Virus record (IMG/VR): IMGVR_UViG_3300045988_136903
Reading direction: 5' to 3' (one strand)
Origin: a virus
DNA length: 34,655 nucleotides
The stretch's first letter is position 1; each line of letters starts with the position of its first letter. The notes beneath the pieces are model-generated. The model had not been told where the DNA came from and did not search any database. It saw nothing but the letters and a program-made list of their open reading frames with translations. A program made the translations under genes and the position numbers. Positions 1 to 25,666 of this stretch are shown here, piece after piece.

Positions 1-99
1 GTTTTTTTTTTAATTTGAACACCAAGAGCATTAGTAACCATTAAGCCACCAACTTGTCTACCTTGTAATGCAGAACTTCCAATATGTTTACCATCTTTA
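1..99. repeat. window-terminal direct repeat, left copy (circular closure overlap)
   Basis: 99/99 identity with 34557-34655, read directly. Confidence 0.95.
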
Positions 100-3229: not shown

Positions 3230-4765
3230 TTATTCCTCCTTTTCTTCTTCTTTCTTACTATTTACTTTTTCCTTTTTTTCTTCCTTTTCATCTTTCTTTT
3301 CTGCATTTGTATCATCCGGAGTTCTTTCAGTAGGAAAACCAAACATTTCCTGATTTGTCATTTTTTCATCAGCAATTGTTTGTAATTCTTTTTCTGCTTG
3401 TTCCTCTGTCATACCCTCATATTTCATTAAGTATGATTTTTTACTTTTTAATCCCTGTTGAACTTCCATCAATGCTAGTGTTTTTTCTGCATTTTTATCT
3501 TCAATTATAGAATCATCAGGAGTTATTGATATATCTGTTGTTTTTATTCCCTCAATATGACATATTGCTCTAACTAAATCATAAACAACATCATTAACAT
3601 TTATTAAATGATGTGCTCTTGTTCTAAATGCCTCACTATTTTCAGACATAACCTCCGTTGCAGTTTTTGTTGAAACTCCATCAAATTTATAAAAATTATT
3701 TCCTAATCCTACATTTGAAGATAACCAATTCAAATCTGCATTTATAGAATCAATGTGTTCTTGTGCTCTTAATTTAAAATCAATCTCTTTTGCAGGTTGT
3801 TTTTCCATTCCCTCTACTGCAACATATACTGTATCATTTTTATCAAAGTATTGAACATAGTCAATAGTTCCATCTTCATTAGGAATTGCTTTTGCTTTCA
3901 AACTAGAATTATCAACTAATATTCTTTTCTTTCCTAAAATAAATTCATTCATAAAAGAGTCATATTTAACATCTATTGACTTAAACCTATCAATAGAATT
4001 AGCACATATAGATATCCCCAAAGGACTTGCCATATCCAAATTATTTGCTAAATTTGGTTTTATTATTTGGAAATAAGGAACATCTGTCTCAATCTCTGAA
4101 CTCTTTTTTACATCAGGAAATTCAACATTAAAATCAATTTCTTTTCCTAATTCATCCTCTGTTTTTGAAACATATAATTCATTATTCTTTTTATATATTC
4201 CATTTTCATATTCATGATATGTAATATGTGTAAAATATTTTACTTTTCCTTTTTTCCCTTTTGCATCTGCATCAATTTCTGAATATCTAGAAATAGTTAT
4301 AATTCCATAAACATACGAATTCGTATATTTATATGGTATAATCAAATCTCCTGTAACATAATCAATAGTTGTTAATCCATTTTCTTTATATTCTATCAAT
4401 GCACCATTTCCCAAAGCACATATTTGCTCCAAAAATATTGGAAAATTTGTTGTAAAATTATTTACTTTATTATCTAAAACTGCCCATAATTTCTTTGTAG
4501 CATTTAATGAACTTAATTTAATCTGTGTTTTTTCTGTCCATAATAATTTTGCCATATCTTCACACAATTTTTTAAACATATTCATTGTTAATCTTTCACA
4601 TTCAACAGTTTGTCCATTTGCTAATTTTGCATTGTAATGGTGGAAATCTGCAACATCTCCGGCATACCATTCTTTCCATATTTCCATATAATCGTAAATA
4701 TCTCCAACTGCTAAATGTATATTTCTTTTATTTAAAACATCTGAAATATTATTATATAGATCCAT
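3230..4765 (-). CDS. portal protein
   Basis: 511 aa, between TerL and MuF; acidic C-terminal tail. Confidence 0.75.
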   Translation of the reverse strand: MDLYNNISDVLNKRNIHLAVGDIYDYMEIWKEWYAGDVADFHHYNAKLANGQTVECERLTMNMFKKLCEDMAKLLWTEKTQIKLSSLNATKKLWAVLDNKVNNFTTNFPIFLEQICALGNGALIEYKENGLTTIDYVTGDLIIPYKYTNSYVYGIITISRYSEIDADAKGKKGKVKYFTHITYHEYENGIYKKNNELYVSKTEDELGKEIDFNVEFPDVKKSSEIETDVPYFQIIKPNLANNLDMASPLGISICANSIDRFKSIDVKYDSFMNEFILGKKRILVDNSSLKAKAIPNEDGTIDYVQYFDKNDTVYVAVEGMEKQPAKEIDFKLRAQEHIDSINADLNWLSSNVGLGNNFYKFDGVSTKTATEVMSENSEAFRTRAHHLINVNDVVYDLVRAICHIEGIKTTDISITPDDSIIEDKNAEKTLALMEVQQGLKSKKSYLMKYEGMTEEQAEKELQTIADEKMTNQEMFGFPTERTPDDTNAEKKDEKEEKKEKVNSKKEEEKEE

Positions 4766-6804: not shown

Positions 6805-8058
6805 TTAATCTATCAATTCGGCTTTTTCCCCTGTTAGTTTTTCCCATCTTTTTATAATAACATCACAATATTGCGGGTCTAACTCCATCATATAACATCT
6901 TCTTTGCATTTGTTCTGCTGCAATCAATGTTGTACCTGAACCACCGAAACAATCTACAACAACATCATTTTTATCAGTTGTTAATTCAATTGCTCTTGCA
7001 GGTAGTTCAACAGGAAAACAAGCCTTATGATTATCTAATTGAGTGTTGCCTGTTCCAATTCTCCAATAATTCGTAATACCTTTCCCTTTTTTCTTGTTAA
7101 AATATCCTCTTTGTTCTGTTGTACCCAAATAATAAAGTTCCATATCATTTGAAATACTTGCATCATCTCCTAACATCAAAATATCTTCATATTGTCTTGT
7201 TAGCATATCTTTTGAAACAATGGGCATTCCATGTCCTTTATCCCAAACAATCAATTCCATATATCTTAATCCTGACTCTTTTATCATTCTATATAGAATT
7301 TCAATAAACTCCCATCTAGTATTTTTGTTGTAACTAATATTCCAAAATAAATAACCTTTTAAATGTTCAATCCATGTCATTACAACATTGATATTAAAGT
7401 CTATATATTTTTTGCTTTCCAAATTATCTGTATAATTTTCATATAAATTTGCTCCCATATTGTATGGAGGGGATGTAAATAAGCATTTTATTTTTTCTCC
7501 ATTTAATAATCGTTTTACATCATCTCTATTTGTGCTATCTCCACACATTAACCTATTATTTCCTAATTTCCATATATCGCCCATTTTAGTAATAGGTTTT
7601 TTCTCAACTTCTTTCAATGCCTCTTTAACATCAAAATTATCATCTTGGATTTCCTCATTATTTTTTAATAAATCCGTAATTTCTTCTTCTGTAAATCCTG
7701 TTGCAAATAATTCTTCATCAGATAAATTTAATTCTTCAAATAATTCTTCTAATTTAGTTTCATCCCATAATCCTGAATTTTTATTTAATGATAAATTTAA
7801 TCTTTTTTCTTGTTTTTCTGTTAATTCTAATAATACACAATCGGCATCTTTCATTCCCAAATCTTTTAAAATATTGTATCTTTGATGCCCTCCTATAATT
7901 GTCATTGTTTTACTATTTACTATTATTGGATCAACTAATCCAAACTCTTGAATACTTGCTTTTATTCTTTGGTATCTTTCATCTTCCTTTTGTAATTCTA
8001 CTCTTGGATTGTATTTTGCCGGATTTAATTTCTCCAGACTTATTTTTTCTATTTTCAT
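6805..8058 (-). CDS. ParB-like nuclease domain fused to an N4-C/N6-A DNA methyltransferase
   Basis: N-terminal LNPAKYNPR...GGHQR (ParB N domain); FTSPPY catalytic motif; C-terminal FGGSGTT AdoMet motif; ATG 8058 with AGAAAGGA RBS. Confidence 0.8.
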   Translation of the reverse strand: MKIEKISLEKLNPAKYNPRVELQKEDERYQRIKASIQEFGLVDPIIVNSKTMTIIGGHQRYNILKDLGMKDADCVLLELTEKQEKRLNLSLNKNSGLWDETKLEELFEELNLSDEELFATGFTEEEITDLLKNNEEIQDDNFDVKEALKEVEKKPITKMGDIWKLGNNRLMCGDSTNRDDVKRLLNGEKIKCLFTSPPYNMGANLYENYTDNLESKKYIDFNINVVMTWIEHLKGYLFWNISYNKNTRWEFIEILYRMIKESGLRYMELIVWDKGHGMPIVSKDMLTRQYEDILMLGDDASISNDMELYYLGTTEQRGYFNKKKGKGITNYWRIGTGNTQLDNHKACFPVELPARAIELTTDKNDVVVDCFGGSGTTLIAAEQMQRRCYMMELDPQYCDVIIKRWEKLTGEKAELID

Positions 8059-8078
8059 GGCACTATCCTTTCTAATAT

Positions 8079-8116
8079 AAAAAATAAACCTACTTGTTTT
8101 TACTACAAATAGGTTT
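8079..8116 (-). terminator. intrinsic terminator in the leader of the late operon / end of the early operon
   Basis: 11-bp stem (8086-8096/8106-8116, one G-U pair), 9-nt loop, then a U6 run on the minus strand. Confidence 0.65.
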
Positions 8117-8192
8117 ATTTGGAAGAATTGATTATGCAACCAAAGGCATTACATTTTTAGTTTTCATCACACTATCATTTTAATTTATTGAT

Positions 8193-20015: not shown

Positions 20016-20240
20016 ATGATATATTTTAGAATTAACGAACTACTAAGGAAAAATAAAAAGAGTAAATATTGGTTTATAAAAAACATGGAAGGAGGATATC
20101 AATCATTATCTCATCTTATGAATAACGAAACTAGATCAATTCATTTCGACACATTAGAAAAAATGCTAAATCTATTTGATTGTGAAATTGGAGAGTTAAT
20201 TGTTATAAAAAAAGATAAAAGAAAGGATAAAATGAAGTGA
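20016..20240 (+). CDS. XRE-family HTH regulator
   Basis: 74 aa, Cro/C1-type HTH; GGAGGTG RBS. Confidence 0.6.
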   Translation: MIYFRINELLRKNKKSKYWFIKNMEGGYQSLSHLMNNETRSIHFDTLEKMLNLFDCEIGELIVIKKDKRKDKMK

Positions 20241-20632
20241 GTAAATTATTAAATCAATTTAATGAATTAAAAAAGCAAGATGCATCTTCAATATATATTT
20301 TCAGAGTTGGAATCTTCTATAACATACTGAATGAAGATGCACACACTTTAAATGAGAAATTAGGATTAAAACTCACATCTTTGAGCCCTGAAATTACAAA
20401 GTGTGGTTTCCCTATTTCTTCACTAGATAAATATACCCAAAAACTTGATAAAATGCAAATAAAATATAGTATCATTGATAATCTTACAGATATAACTATT
20501 ACAGATTATTCTAATAATATTGAATTTAAGAAAATAATCAATAAAATAAAGTCAATAGATATTGATAATACTAATCCAATTGATGCTCTAAATATTTTAA
20601 ATGATTTAAAAAATAAGATTGAAAAAATTTAA
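20237..20632 (+). CDS. mini-MutS: MutS domain I-like protein without ATPase domains
   Basis: LLNQFNELKKQDASSIYIFRVGIFYNILNEDAHTLNEKLGLKLT...CGFP...YTQKL parallels MutS MMQQYLRLKAQ..LLFYRMGDFYELFYDDA...LT..AGIP; GTG start overlaps the XRE stop (GTGA). Confidence 0.55.
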   Translation: MSKLLNQFNELKKQDASSIYIFRVGIFYNILNEDAHTLNEKLGLKLTSLSPEITKCGFPISSLDKYTQKLDKMQIKYSIIDNLTDITITDYSNNIEFKKIINKIKSIDIDNTNPIDALNILNDLKNKIEKI

Positions 20633-22362: not shown

Positions 22363-22497
22363 CTATTTATAATCTTCTCCTGTTATTTCTTTATATTCTT
22401 TATTTGTTATCCATTTTCCTACTGCGTTATATACTCTTTTTTTACTCCATATTCCATTATTGTAATATGTTTTTACTTTTTCAAAATTCTTACTCAC
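22363..22497 (-). CDS. xkdX: XkdX-family small protein (44 aa)
   Basis: GTG 22497 with GGAGGTG RBS; SKNFEKVKTYYNNGIWSKKRVYNAVGKWITNKEYKEITGEDYK matches the XkdX pattern. Confidence 0.6.
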   Translation of the reverse strand: MSKNFEKVKTYYNNGIWSKKRVYNAVGKWITNKEYKEITGEDYK

Positions 22498-22498
22498 G

Positions 22499-22822
22499 TT
22501 ACACCTCCAAATCTACATCAGTCATCATTGCAAGATATTCGATGTTTCCTTGTATTTTAGCCATATTTATTTCTTCCTGTGATAATTCTCTTAATACAAA
22601 ATAATATCCATCTTCATAATGAACTATTTGCACTAATTCCATATTTTTATATTCATTAACAACTTTTTTACCATCTTCTATCCCTTCTATTGTAACCTTT
22701 AATAATTTTCCATCAAACATCTCTTTCTTAATTTCTGTCTCTGATACAAAATTATTTCCATTTAATCTAAGGTTTTCAATTGTTGTTCCATCAGATAGTG
22801 TAATTTTCCATGATTTTTCCAT
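22499..22822 (-). CDS. hypothetical tail-associated protein
   Basis: AGGAGG RBS; 107 aa; overlaps the RT 3' end by 61 nt. Confidence 0.5.
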   Translation of the reverse strand: MEKSWKITLSDGTTIENLRLNGNNFVSETEIKKEMFDGKLLKVTIEGIEDGKKVVNEYKNMELVQIVHYEDGYYFVLRELSQEEINMAKIQGNIEYLAMMTDVDLEV

Positions 22823-23886
22823 TTTATTTTCCTCCTAAACAAATCATAATATAATTGAGACATATTAGTTATCTGTTGCCTAGACATATTTTTATAATTT
22901 CCTGAAATCCAACTTTTAAATATATTCTCAATTTCTTCATAATTTAGTCTATTATTATCTAATAGCCTTTTATATGCTTTTAACTTTCTTCTTTGTCTAG
23001 TTATTGCTTTTGGACTTATTCTCCTTATAATTCTTCCTGTTTCTGTTAATTGATAACTTAATTGCAGAATTCTAAAAGGTTGTGATAATTTTACAATTCT
23101 TGTTTTTTTATCATTGATTATCAAACCCAATTCATTAGCAATAACTTTTATTTCTTTTTGTAATTGTTTTAAGAATTCCTTATCCTTATGAATGATATAA
23201 CTATCATCTGTGTATCTTCCATAATATTTACATCCTTTTACTATTTTTATGTAATTGTCAATTTTGGATGGATAAGCAATCCCTATATTTTGTGAGGGTT
23301 GACTTCCTATATCTACCCCTCTCCCATTTTTATTATCTACATTATAGACATCAAATAAATTTTTTAAAATCCACATAGTAATTTTTGCTTCTTCAGGGTT
23401 TACTTTTCTTAAAAAATATTGTAACTTCTTTAAACATAAATCATGAGGAATACTTGCATAATATCCGCTAAAATCAATTAACAATATGTATCCCTCATTA
23501 CTTTTATATTTTCTATAATATTGATGTAAGTGTGTTTCAAATCTTTTTCTATGAAAAGCCACACCTCTATTCTTTTGACTTGCACCATTATCATAGATTA
23601 AATATGGAGAAATAGCTGGACTTAAAACATTATCGCAAAGTAAATGATTAATTGTTTTATCAACCATATTATTACTTGTAATATGTCTTATTTTTCCTCG
23701 TTCATTTATAGTAAATTTTTTTCCTGCTACTTGTTTATATTTCCACTCTTTCAAATCTTTTAAAATTTGTGCTGTTTCTATCAAATGGTTCATTTCGAAC
23801 AATTGTGATTGATATTTAAAAGGTGCTCCTTGAATTGCCTTTGTTCCAGCTTCATAAATTTTATTTGCATCATAAAAAATATTCAT
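22762..23886 (-). CDS. DGR reverse transcriptase
   Basis: IGSQPSQ ([LIV]GxxxSQ, 23290-23310), YTDD (23203-23214), LLIDFSGYYASI motif A; probable ATG 23886 (the ORF is open to 23928). Confidence 0.9.
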   Translation of the reverse strand: MNIFYDANKIYEAGTKAIQGAPFKYQSQLFEMNHLIETAQILKDLKEWKYKQVAGKKFTINERGKIRHITSNNMVDKTINHLLCDNVLSPAISPYLIYDNGASQKNRGVAFHRKRFETHLHQYYRKYKSNEGYILLIDFSGYYASIPHDLCLKKLQYFLRKVNPEEAKITMWILKNLFDVYNVDNKNGRGVDIGSQPSQNIGIAYPSKIDNYIKIVKGCKYYGRYTDDSYIIHKDKEFLKQLQKEIKVIANELGLIINDKKTRIVKLSQPFRILQLSYQLTETGRIIRRISPKAITRQRRKLKAYKRLLDNNRLNYEEIENIFKSWISGNYKNMSRQQITNMSQLYYDLFRRKIKWKNHGKLHYLMEQQLKTLD

Positions 23887-24034
23887 AAAAATCACTTTAA
23901 TAGTATTACTGGTCGTAACCAAATACATAATGATTAGTATTTATCAATTCTGCTATTGAAGGGATAATCTTTCCTTTCCTTTTCCCATATCCATACGATG
24001 GAATCAAGTCCATATAAATAAATTGTATGGGTTG

Positions 24035-24130
24035 TGAAATCAGGACGAACACCGTTGACATTCGAAGCGTTGTTGTAACTCGAATTACCATTGTTGCTGA
24101 CATTCGCGAAATTCGTAGAAGAAACGACAT
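24035..24130 (-). repeat. DGR template repeat (TR), non-coding RNA template
   Basis: 96 nt aligning to 24805-24900; AAY-rich in the target frame. Confidence 0.9.
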
Positions 24131-24151
24131 ACAAAGATTACCCACTAATTA

Positions 24152-24664
24152 TTATTTTTTTATATTTTTTAAAAACCTATTGTCAGTTTGTCGAAGTGAT
24201 TTTATCATATTAAATTCTTTTTGAATTTCTAGAACCAAATTCATATACTTATTCAAATCAGCATATAAACATTCTCCTGCATATTGCAATTCATCTTGAA
24301 GTGCATTACAACAAGCCATAGCTCTGTCCATTTCTATACGTCTTTCTTCAAACTCTGACATATATGTTGGAAATATTGTATTTGCAATTCTTAAATGCCT
24401 ACTTATTCCTGTTGCTAATTCTATTACATTGTCTGATACTCTATTTATTTGATTTCTATAAAATTTATACATATTTTCTTTTATTCTTATTTGTTCCTTT
24501 TCATCAAGTCCTTTTATTCTATTGTTTATTTTCTCTTCTATTTTTGAAAATGTTATATAAAAATTATTTTCTGCTAAATTTGTTACTGCCATTCTTATCA
24601 TATATGCATTATGAATTGTTTGCAATTTTGATTCTTTTCTTTCACTTTTCTTTATCTCTGACAT
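24152..24664 (-). CDS. avd: Avd-like DGR accessory protein (helical, basic)
   Basis: Position between VR and TR; 170-aa all-helical basic protein. The call is mainly positional. Confidence 0.55.
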   Translation of the reverse strand: MSEIKKSERKESKLQTIHNAYMIRMAVTNLAENNFYITFSKIEEKINNRIKGLDEKEQIRIKENMYKFYRNQINRVSDNVIELATGISRHLRIANTIFPTYMSEFEERRIEMDRAMACCNALQDELQYAGECLYADLNKYMNLVLEIQKEFNMIKSLRQTDNRFLKNIKK

Positions 24665-24763
24665 TGTAAAATAATACTATTTCTCCTTTTCTATTTTTTC
24701 AACAGAAATTATATCATTTTTATTTTCTTATTTTAACTATCTTGAAAGCTAACTATACTATAT

Positions 24764-24784
24764 GACAGGGCATAAAGCCCTGTC
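24764..24784 (-). promoter_or_regulatory. GC-rich hairpin 21 nt downstream of VR (DGR target-recognition type)
   Basis: 8-bp stem GACAGGGC/GCCCTGTC, 5-nt loop, no U-run after it. Confidence 0.5.
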
Positions 24785-24793
24785 GATGTCTGA

Positions 24794-25666
24794 TTACACG
24801 ATTAGGAAAGCAGGACGAACACCGCCGACATTCGAAGCGGCGCGGTAACTCGAATTACCACCGCGGCCGACACTCGCGAAATTCGTAGAAGAAACGACAT
24901 CTCTTAACCAGTACCAATATCTATCTCCAGCATCAGTTCTAGCAATAATCGAATCATGTCTTAACCTGAATAATGATAATTGAGAATTGTCTATTTGATA
25001 ATTGTTAGGAAATGTAGATCCATTTGTAGCATTTTTGAATATTTGACAACCATAAACCATTATCTCATTCATCAATTCTATATCAGAATCGTACCATGTT
25101 CCTCCGGTCTCACATCCATTTGAAACTGCATTTTGTAAATGATTTCTATGCTTTAATATGTGACTTGTTTCAAAATCATTTTTTATTACTGTTTTAAATT
25201 GTGCTAAATTTGTTTTATACATCGCACTACCAATATAAGCTCCATCAGTTATATTACTAGCATTCATTTGTGCTGTTCCCATTATTCTTTCCGGAATTAC
25301 TAAAACATGTTGTGTCTTACATTCTGTATCTCCACAATGTAATCTGTAATTTATATCTGCAACAATATATTTTCTATTACTTGTTTTTCCAATAATATAA
25401 TCTCCTACAAAAATATTATCGAATGTTCCATCAGCAACTGCTTGACTAAATGTTTTTTCATTATATTTTTCTCTACCATAAAAGTATTCTGTAATATCTT
25501 TTCCTCTATATATTGCATTATGTCCTCCTGCATTACTAGGAACTATTACATTTAATAAATTTTCTATTACTGCCTTTTTTGTTGTTCCATTGGTAGTATC
25601 AACAAATGGAATAACATCTTTTTTAAGTGGCTTTCCTTCTGTTAATTCAGTAATCTTTTTTATCAT
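24794..25666 (-). CDS. DGR target: tail-fibre tip / receptor-binding protein with a C-type-lectin-fold-like variable C-terminus
   Basis: C-terminal WYWLRDVVSSTNFASVGRGGNSSYRAASNVGGVRPAFLIV carries the VR; follows the tail fibre genes. Confidence 0.8.
   Translation of the reverse strand: MIKKITELTEGKPLKKDVIPFVDTTNGTTKKAVIENLLNVIVPSNAGGHNAIYRGKDITEYFYGREKYNEKTFSQAVADGTFDNIFVGDYIIGKTSNRKYIVADINYRLHCGDTECKTQHVLVIPERIMGTAQMNASNITDGAYIGSAMYKTNLAQFKTVIKNDFETSHILKHRNHLQNAVSNGCETGGTWYDSDIELMNEIMVYGCQIFKNATNGSTFPNNYQIDNSQLSLFRLRHDSIIARTDAGDRYWYWLRDVVSSTNFASVGRGGNSSYRAASNVGGVRPAFLIV
24805..24900 (-). repeat. DGR variable repeat (VR)
   Basis: 82/96 identity to TR; every mismatch is opposite a TR adenine. 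Confidence 0.9.

Follow-up and report, generated by a model that had tools for sequence, protein, structure and literature searches.

The prototype diversity-generating retroelement (DGR), carried by Bordetella phage BPP-1 and arranged as mtd-avd-TR-brt, is the described system whose architecture is shared by the locus presented here. In BPP-1, a variable repeat (VR) at the 3′ end of the gene of the tail protein Mtd differs from its template repeat (TR) at adenines only, a GC hairpin follows the VR, and the TR is accompanied by a spacer (Sp) of 144 nt. DGRs have also been reported in phages of gut bacteria, namely Faecalibacterium phages and the phages nd4 and nd12 (PMC11792537, PMC10743442), and the annotated phage with the reverse transcriptase (RT) closest to the present one is Acutalibacter phage Fontainebleau (ON453893.1), a cultured, inducible prophage of A. 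muris from the OMM12 mouse consortium. The locus in question lies in the IMG/VR virus record IMGVR_UViG_3300045988_136903, a stretch of 34,655 nt analysed at its full length and referred to below as the window. An earlier interpretation made from the letters of the window alone (the sequence-only reading) had taken this locus for a complete DGR aimed at a tail protein, a view that is upheld wherever it can be tested.

With high confidence, the window carries a complete and currently active DGR of BPP-1-type architecture, located where the tail module of a 34.6-kb temperate siphophage ends. The element is of a well-known kind with an ordinary mechanism, and its only unusual part is an elongated and unannotated family of Avd-like proteins. 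What is observed is the anatomy of the locus, a mismatch spectrum confined to adenines, the turnover of VRs on a constant TR, the affinity of the RT to DGR RTs and a conserved RNA structure. Compared to BPP-1, gene order and strand are the same and the spacer measures 149 nt. However, the TR is shorter (95 nt against 134 nt), the accessory protein has 170 aa and no sequence similarity to the 128-aa bAvd, and the target belongs to the DUF6273 family, without detectable similarity to Mtd. Differences from BPP-1 extend to the host, here a gut Firmicute of low GC, and to the phage, here a temperate siphophage.

The RTs of Faecalibacterium phages Roos, Pioen, Lelie, Taranis and Brigit, of Roseburia phage Shimadzu and of nd4 and nd12 are 26-34% identical to that of the window over >85% of their length. 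These phages of gut Clostridia share the habitat of the window phage and have DUF6273 targets, in comparison with which the window target is short, with a single domain and 290 aa; their records contain no detectable homolog of the accessory protein (tblastn, E<=1e-3). Fontainebleau is the only annotated phage record with such a homolog (43% identity), and its RT is 47% identical to that of the window. The succession of tail genes, DGR, holin and amidase is conserved between the two phages. In Fontainebleau (locus L056, ON453893.1 30580-39062), whose homologous DGR is complete, the TR of 94 nt occupies positions 4520-4613 and the VR positions 3805-3898 of the locus, and 16 of 19 mismatches fall at adenines; its host differs by a higher GC content, as judged from sequence. 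The annotation of its DGR genes goes no further than 'hypothetical protein' and 'reverse transcriptase', neither DGR nor RT is mentioned in the paper reporting the phage, and no link between A. muris and DGRs was found in the literature searched. The 5-kb locus of the window has no megablast match among 50,697 phage records.

Anatomy, template repeat and turnover of the variable repeat

The map of open reading frames (ORFs), together with a repeat search, gives the following order on the minus strand: target gene with VR, 170-aa ORF, TR, spacer and RT. The features are listed with window coordinates.

24794-25666 (-), target gene, a 290-aa ORF ending ...WYWLRDVVSSTNFASVGRGGNSSYRAASNVGGVRPAFLIV
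24806-24900 (-), VR, 95 nt, the last 31 target codons before FLIV-stop
24764-24784 (-), GC-rich hairpin 21 nt downstream of the VR, with an 8-bp stem GACAGGGC/GCCCTGTC and a 5-nt loop
24152-24664 (-), 170-aa ORF in the Avd position, basic and predicted all-helical, a probable elongated Avd
24036-24130 (-), TR, 95 nt, noncoding copy
23887-24035 (-), Sp RNA, 149 nt from the end of the TR to the ATG of the RT
22762-23886 (-), DGR RT, 374 aa from the second ATG (long ORF 22762-23928)

All the elements named by the sequence-only reading are present in the canonical order that it gave, with coordinates agreeing within 1 nt. Its TR limit at 24035 included one additional A/C mismatch; the limit used here is 24036. 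The spacer measures 149 nt (148 nt in the sequence-only reading). The end of the 170-aa gene and the TR are separated by a gap of 21 nt. As a side remark on annotation, a 66-aa ORF (23934-24134, minus strand) corresponds to the TR read in the target frame and running into the spacer, and is almost certainly no gene. The same read-through artefact is annotated in phage Fontainebleau as hypothetical protein WAK78963.1 (L056 4506-4760).

TR and VR are 86% identical over 95 nt, and 13/13 mismatches fall at TR adenines, which account for 24 of the 95 positions (hypergeometric P ~7e-10). When the TR is read in the frame of the target, 12 adenines occupy the first codon position, 12 the second and none the third, and AAY codons hold most of them, a layout such as a DGR template should have. 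Scanning both strands with tolerance for changes at adenines detects no further TR-like copy or VR in the window, so that the element has a single target.

The target matches Pfam DUF6273 (PF19789) with an E-value of 8e-5, its residues 228-289 aligning to profile positions 106-170 of 172, and the same domain is matched by 25/25 aligned members of the target family (best E 5.9e-9). The VR lies at the C-terminal end of this domain and coincides with the hypervariable columns of the family alignment; three homologs of 423 aa possess in addition an N-terminal Phage_tail_fib (phage tail-collar fibre) domain. DUF6273 has been reported in DGR targets of gut Firmicute phages, with the variable region at its C-terminus in targets of Faecalibacterium prophages (PMC11792537), and other DUF6273 proteins have been modelled as C-type-lectin-like (PMC10743442). 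Based on the domain match and on these published models, the target may adopt a C-type-lectin-like fold. Searches of the PDB with the target sequence and with its family profile gave no match, and hhalign found no similarity between the target family and Mtd. Because the gene adjoins the tail module, a role in receptor binding can reasonably be inferred for its product.

A profile of the 170-aa protein, run against species-representative genomes, yielded 38 loci, all in metagenome-assembled genomes (MAGs) of uncultured gut Clostridia from human, mouse and ruminant. In 36/38 of them, a repeat of ~87-97 nt follows the accessory gene and is matched by a second copy in the 3′ end of the gene upstream. 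Differences between TR and VR outside adenines, which the sequence-only reading had held to speak against a DGR if found in relatives, are rare: across these 36 loci, 503/515 mismatches fall at template adenines, and 490/493 when locus L029 is left aside.

The most direct view of VR turnover is given by elements sharing one TR, a set consisting of the window and nine elements from other metagenomes (five MAG loci and four IMG/VR contigs). These 10 elements display 10 unique VRs, all TR/VR differences (143/143) are at template adenines, and 22/24 adenine positions vary. An invariant VR, likewise considered adverse by the sequence-only reading, is thus not what is seen between samples. The TR is identical in 8/10 elements, and the other two (L003 and L004) share the substitution C62T, which is also present as T in their VRs, as expected if information passes from TR to VR. 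Over the accessory gene and the TR, 200-nt bins are 98-100% identical in four of the five MAG loci that were compared; with differing VRs beside these near-identical regions, turnover is much more rapid in the VR than in the sequence around it. From these comparisons between samples, mutagenic retrohoming appears to be ongoing and the DGR is evidently active.

The 10 VRs have A 97 times, G 81 times, C 26 times and T 26 times at template adenines. The strong excess of G among the substitutions could reflect a misincorporation bias of the RT or selection on the protein. At the other end of the VR, the segment 24806-24824 (minus strand) is invariant and resembles the initiation of mutagenic homing (IMH) site, with no variation 3′ of TR position 76 in the 10 elements. 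Within it, TR A91 (window 24040) corresponds to C in the VR (24810) in 10/10 elements. Judged by the BPP-1 model (PMC5758913), this fixed A/C difference fits a difference of the IMH/IMH* type outside the copied segment.

Reverse transcriptase and noncoding RNA

The sequence-only reading had assigned the RT to the DGR type on account of its motifs IGSQPSQ and YTDD. Both motifs are present, the former (motif 4) within GVDIGSQPSQ, and in an alignment with the BPP-1 enzyme (bRT, from the GenBank record) they stand opposite IGSLTSQ and YMDD. BLASTP gives 23% identity to bRT over 284 residues (E 1e-12). In a PDB search with the RT, bRT (8ub7) is the best match (E 1.5e-6) and the only one with E < 0.01, with a group II maturase (E 0.012) ranking second, ahead of a Cas6-RT-Cas1 fusion; retron RTs are absent from the PDB matches. 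More generally, the protein matches Pfam RVT_1 (E 9.5e-14) and the reverse transcriptase family phrog_1423 (E 6.7e-50). It has ~2,100 homologs, most of 372-374 aa, and these lengths support the start at the second ATG (23886) that had been proposed earlier. On the sequence evidence of the PDB match, of the motif alignment and of its nearest relatives in annotated phages (Fontainebleau, Roseburia phage Shimadzu, several Faecalibacterium phages, nd4 and nd12), the RT is assigned to the DGR type.

The region from the stop of the accessory gene to the start of the RT was aligned for 12 diverse loci, and its RNAalifold consensus comprises seven helices outside the TR (H1-H7). In the window, they are located as follows, in the order of the transcript.

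24133-24146 (-), 5′ strand of H1 (AGTGGGTAATCTTT), in the gap from the avd-like stop to the TR, pairing with 23960-23972
24031-23991 (-), H4/H5, a two-part stem-loop directly after the TR
23987-23973 (-), strands of H2/H3, two short helices pairing with the 3′ end of the TR
23972-23960 (-), 3′ strand of H1
23959-23944 (-), H6, a short stem-loop directly after H1
23943-23927 (-), A-rich single strand of 17 nt
23926-23903 (-), H7, the 3′ stem-loop

This consensus of 48 pairs is paired in 97.2% of the alignment cells, against 38-51% when the partners are slid by 1-3 columns. It includes 25 compensated pairs, compared to 4-9 in the slid controls, and 0/500 shuffles reach the observed values. The long-range helix H1 has 13 pairs, 6 of them with compensatory changes, and 98.7% of its cells are paired; it is also compensated in phage Fontainebleau, which likewise possesses a hairpin after the VR. 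The single-sequence minimum free energy (MFE) fold of the window RNA recovers H1, H4/H5, H6 and H7.

In BPP-1, the RNA modules resolved by cryo-EM have a matching order and matching sizes and lie at comparable places in Sp (bioRxiv 10.1101/2023.10.23.563531), a comparison that is one of architecture only. Thus, H4/H5 correspond to the Avd-binding stem-loop after the TR, H2/H3 to the template:primer duplex formed by the TR 3′ end with Sp, and H1 to the 'cPRT Stop' duplex, which involves an upstream segment, is adjacent to the template:primer duplex and averages 13 bp across DGRs (bioRxiv 10.1101/2023.10.23.563531). Next, H6 and the first adenosines that follow it correspond to a short stem-loop succeeded by adenosines, the rest of the A-rich strand to the single-stranded 'Thumb Ring', and H7 to the bRT-binding stem. 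The two systems differ in the location of the upstream strand of the long duplex, which is inside the avd coding sequence in BPP-1 and in the 21-nt gap past the accessory stop here.

Outside this RNA, the position of the hairpin downstream of the VR is shared by 17 aligned loci, and 5/8 of its pairs show compensatory changes. It corresponds to the GC-rich inverted repeat described downstream of the IMH in BPP-1 (PMC5758913, PMC3240598), and by analogy it may contribute to homing. An intrinsic terminator was considered for this hairpin and rejected, since most loci have no T-run after it and a terminator scan does not report it.

By analogy with BPP-1, a mechanism with priming in cis can be proposed. 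The transcript would cover the TR together with a short stretch upstream of it and the 149-nt spacer. A loop containing the TR would be closed by the 13-bp long-range helix; beside this helix, a template:primer duplex would arise as the TR 3′ end pairs with the spacer, and the spacer's stem-loops would serve as docking sites for the RT and the accessory protein. The RT, acting with this basic helical-bundle protein of 170 aa, would synthesize complementary DNA (cDNA) from about TR position 80 toward the 5′ end, with misincorporation opposite adenines. The cDNA would then replace the VR, with direction given by the GC hairpin downstream and by the invariant segment at the 3′ end. In this way, randomization would affect as many as 22 adenine positions, spread over 12 codons (10 being AAY), at the C-terminus of the DUF6273 tail protein, and receptor binding would be altered.

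The accessory protein and the rival explanations

An avd-like protein, longer than typical and perhaps undescribed, was part of the sequence-only reading. The protein has indeed 170 aa, and it is called 'hypothetical protein' wherever the source gives a name. Its isoelectric point (pI) is 9.05; in its family, which comprises 498 clusters at 50% identity in an exhaustive profile search, the pI averages 8.7 and the median length is 178 aa. The AlphaFold2 (AF2) model of the window protein is a helical bundle with a predicted local distance difference test (pLDDT) score of 76.6, in which a poorly conserved extra segment follows the first helix (~residues 37-65). With this model, the top Foldseek matches in the PDB are ten chains of the small bundles 2rld and 2gsc (probability 0.96-1.00, template-modelling (TM) score 0.72-0.81 over the target), and the top two in BFVD are entries named 'Avd-like protein' (probability 1.00 and 0.99); bAvd (4dwl) is not among the best 50 matches listed. 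The entry 2rld was deposited as 'S23 ribosomal protein family', and a resemblance of Avd to S23 ribosomal proteins has been described (Handa et al.). Compared to the four-helix-bundle family of Avd and S23 (PF22296; PDB 4dwl, 2rld and 2gsc), the accessory protein is likewise basic, encoded directly upstream of the TR and, in its model, all-helical, but it is ~40-60 residues longer and has no sequence-profile match. The structural model thus points to a very diverged and elongated Avd as its probable identity.

Several results weigh against the reading of a complete and active DGR with an Avd-type partner. The accessory protein has no match in Pfam, NCBIfam, PHROG or PADLOC, and the same scans of 47 diverse full-length and 10 shorter members of its family give no Avd match, whereas bAvd itself, taken as a control, scores 123 bits on PF22296. 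When two profiles of the accessory family are compared to bAvd by hhalign, the probability is <1%, even with an effective number of sequences (Neff) of 5, and phmmer and hmmsearch against PDB sequences establish no link to Avd. The E-values of the Foldseek matches to the accessory protein are weak (0.06-0.5), and the helical bundle is a widespread fold. As for the target, the window protein reaches 23.0 bits on DUF6273, 0.5 bit short of the cutoff of 23.5, and its AF2 model, built with a 25-sequence alignment, has a pLDDT of 38.7 and is unusable for a fold search. In the RNA, H2 and H3, which would form the template:primer duplex, are invariant, so that covariation neither supports nor refutes them and they are predicted from energy alone. 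Locus L029 has 9 non-adenine mismatches among 22, and locus L035 encodes the accessory protein with no TR/VR pair found within 6 kb; decay of the element, or a target situated elsewhere, may account for these two loci. Lastly, the variation of the VR is seen between samples, in a comparison of assembled sequences.

One alternative concerns the nature of the accessory protein. It is conceivable, though rather unlikely, that the ~500 clusters at 50% identity, with proteins typically of 160-220 aa, form a distinct and unnamed class of DGR accessory proteins, being either an extremely diverged, elongated Avd with an insert or a convergent helical-bundle cofactor, and that a syntenic MutS domain I protein, described below, might additionally modulate mismatch processing during cDNA integration. 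If true, this class would be missed by current DGR annotation, and some 'Avd-less' DGRs would carry it.

Also unlikely is the view that the DGR is real but that its 170-aa protein is no homolog of Avd, being either an unrelated accessory factor or a conserved phage gene in the Avd slot, with the RT acting with another partner or alone. The profile searches speak for this view, as the protein and its 57 diverse relatives match none of bAvd, 23S_rRNA_IVP, NCBIfam, PHROG and PADLOC, and so do the hhalign probability, the ~40 additional residues relative to bAvd and Foldseek E-values >0.05; moreover, about one-quarter of DGRs are without avd and other accessory classes exist (Wu et al., PMC5758913). 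However, both structure libraries rank Avd-type proteins first with a probability of 0.99-1.00, generic or designed bundles coming lower, and the basic character of the family is that of Avd and not that of the acidic CH1 or of the neutral MSL and HRDC classes (PMC5758913). The accessory gene is also immediately 5′ of the TR, as avd is, and a covarying stem-loop is found directly after the TR, where BPP-1 has its Avd-binding stem-loop. Avd genes have been described as 'very poorly conserved' (PMC5758913). A diverged Avd is retained as the probable identity.

It is very improbable that the element is a fossil in which the TR/VR pattern records past activity, with no diversification now in the window genome. 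A single assembled genome cannot show current activity, and in a second sample the target protein has an identical sequence, hence an identical VR. Against this stand the intact ORFs of the RT, accessory protein and target, the presence of the catalytic motifs, the conservation of the TR and of all RNA elements, and 10 different VRs on near-identical elements, a turnover far above the background divergence.

Finally, an RT of another retroelement (group II intron, retron or defence RT), with repeats arising by duplication and diversifying selection on a receptor-binding tip, finds some echo in NCBIfam and PADLOC, where the matches are weak and to generic RT models, a group II intron RT/maturase being the top NCBIfam match alongside many weak defence-RT matches, all far below cutoffs (e.g. 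55.6 against 300 bits), but this explanation is effectively refuted by the mismatch spectrum, since mismatches occur exclusively at the adenines of one copy that is noncoding and invariant; in addition, an Rfam search of the whole window at gathering thresholds finds no family, and thus no group II intron or retron RNA, bRT is four orders of magnitude ahead of the group II maturase in the PDB, where no retron RT is matched, and the motif is [LIV]GxxxSQ and not the group II form.

Phage context and significance

The first and last 99 nt of the window (1-99 and 34557-34655) are an exact direct repeat, and the window is identical to the ENA contig k99_123414. These features indicate a k-mer overlap of a circular assembly and a complete genome of ~34,556 bp. 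With genes for an integrase and a CI-like repressor, together with a siphovirus-type tail module, it belongs to a temperate siphophage. The hosts of this complete 34.6-kb phage, the carrier of the DGR, are uncultured gut Clostridia of low GC. The placement of the element after tail genes, as given by the sequence-only reading, holds: genes for the tape measure, Dit, Sipho_Gp37 and a fibre-like protein (phrog_1220) are upstream of the target, and the cassette is followed by XkdX, holin-like genes and an amidase endolysin. A promoter scan was uninformative (31 sites against 30.4 expected).

Among neighbouring genes, a 107-aa ORF without family match (22499-22822) is overlapped by 61 nt by the 3′ end of the RT (22762-22822, minus strand) and followed by the XkdX-family gene (22363-22497); by position, it is XkdW-like. 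Farther away, positions 6805-8139 (minus strand) encode a 444-aa protein that joins a ParB-like nuclease/partition domain to a DNA methyltransferase (phrog_498 and phrog_620).

The ORF 20237-20632 (plus strand) encodes a stand-alone MutS domain I (MutS-I) protein of 131 aa (PF01624, 50 bits), and overlaps by 4 nt an upstream ORF of the Cro/C1-type with a helix-turn-helix (HTH; 20016-20240, plus strand). This pair lies just past the lysis cassette and is convergent with it, the MutS-I gene being 2.1 kb from the RT on the opposite strand. It is kept near the DGR in at least 33 related loci. The small MutS-like (MSL) accessory class, encoded within the cassette, co-occurs with avd-containing DGRs (Wu et al. 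2018), and the window ORF resembles it. Of 40 viral loci with MutS-I and enough flank, 16 have a DGR of the window type, 5 a distant RT in the same place and 19 no RT, and in Fontainebleau no MutS-I homolog is detected although a DGR is present. An obligate accessory function in DGRs was therefore rejected: about half of the encoding phages lack an RT nearby, and the closest relatives lack a DGR. The association between MutS-I and DGR may reflect shared phage ancestry. In a separate observation, five IMG/VR loci (L063, L067, L070, L081 and L095) share the MutS-I gene and the endolysin with the window and have, at the equivalent position, an RT only 24-26% identical to that of the window, which suggests a different RT lineage in the same slot of related phages.

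DGRs are abundant in gut phages, DUF6273 targets have already been described and the mechanism is not new, so that the novelty of the present element is modest. It resides in an unrecognized accessory family, in BPP-1 RNA modules supported by covariation in a distant lineage and in the existence of a cultured relative in a gnotobiotic model. The accessory family stands beside DGR RTs but is invisible to Pfam, NCBIfam and PHROGs. Surveys may consequently undercount Avd, which a profile of the family would remedy. The recurrence, with covariation, of the cryo-EM modules of BPP-1 RNA in a distant Firmicute phage provides independent comparative support for RNA-guided cis-priming as a general feature of DGRs. 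Phage Fontainebleau, cultured, inducible and part of the OMM12 model of gnotobiotic mice, is a tractable subject for work on tropism switching driven by a DGR within a gut community of defined composition.

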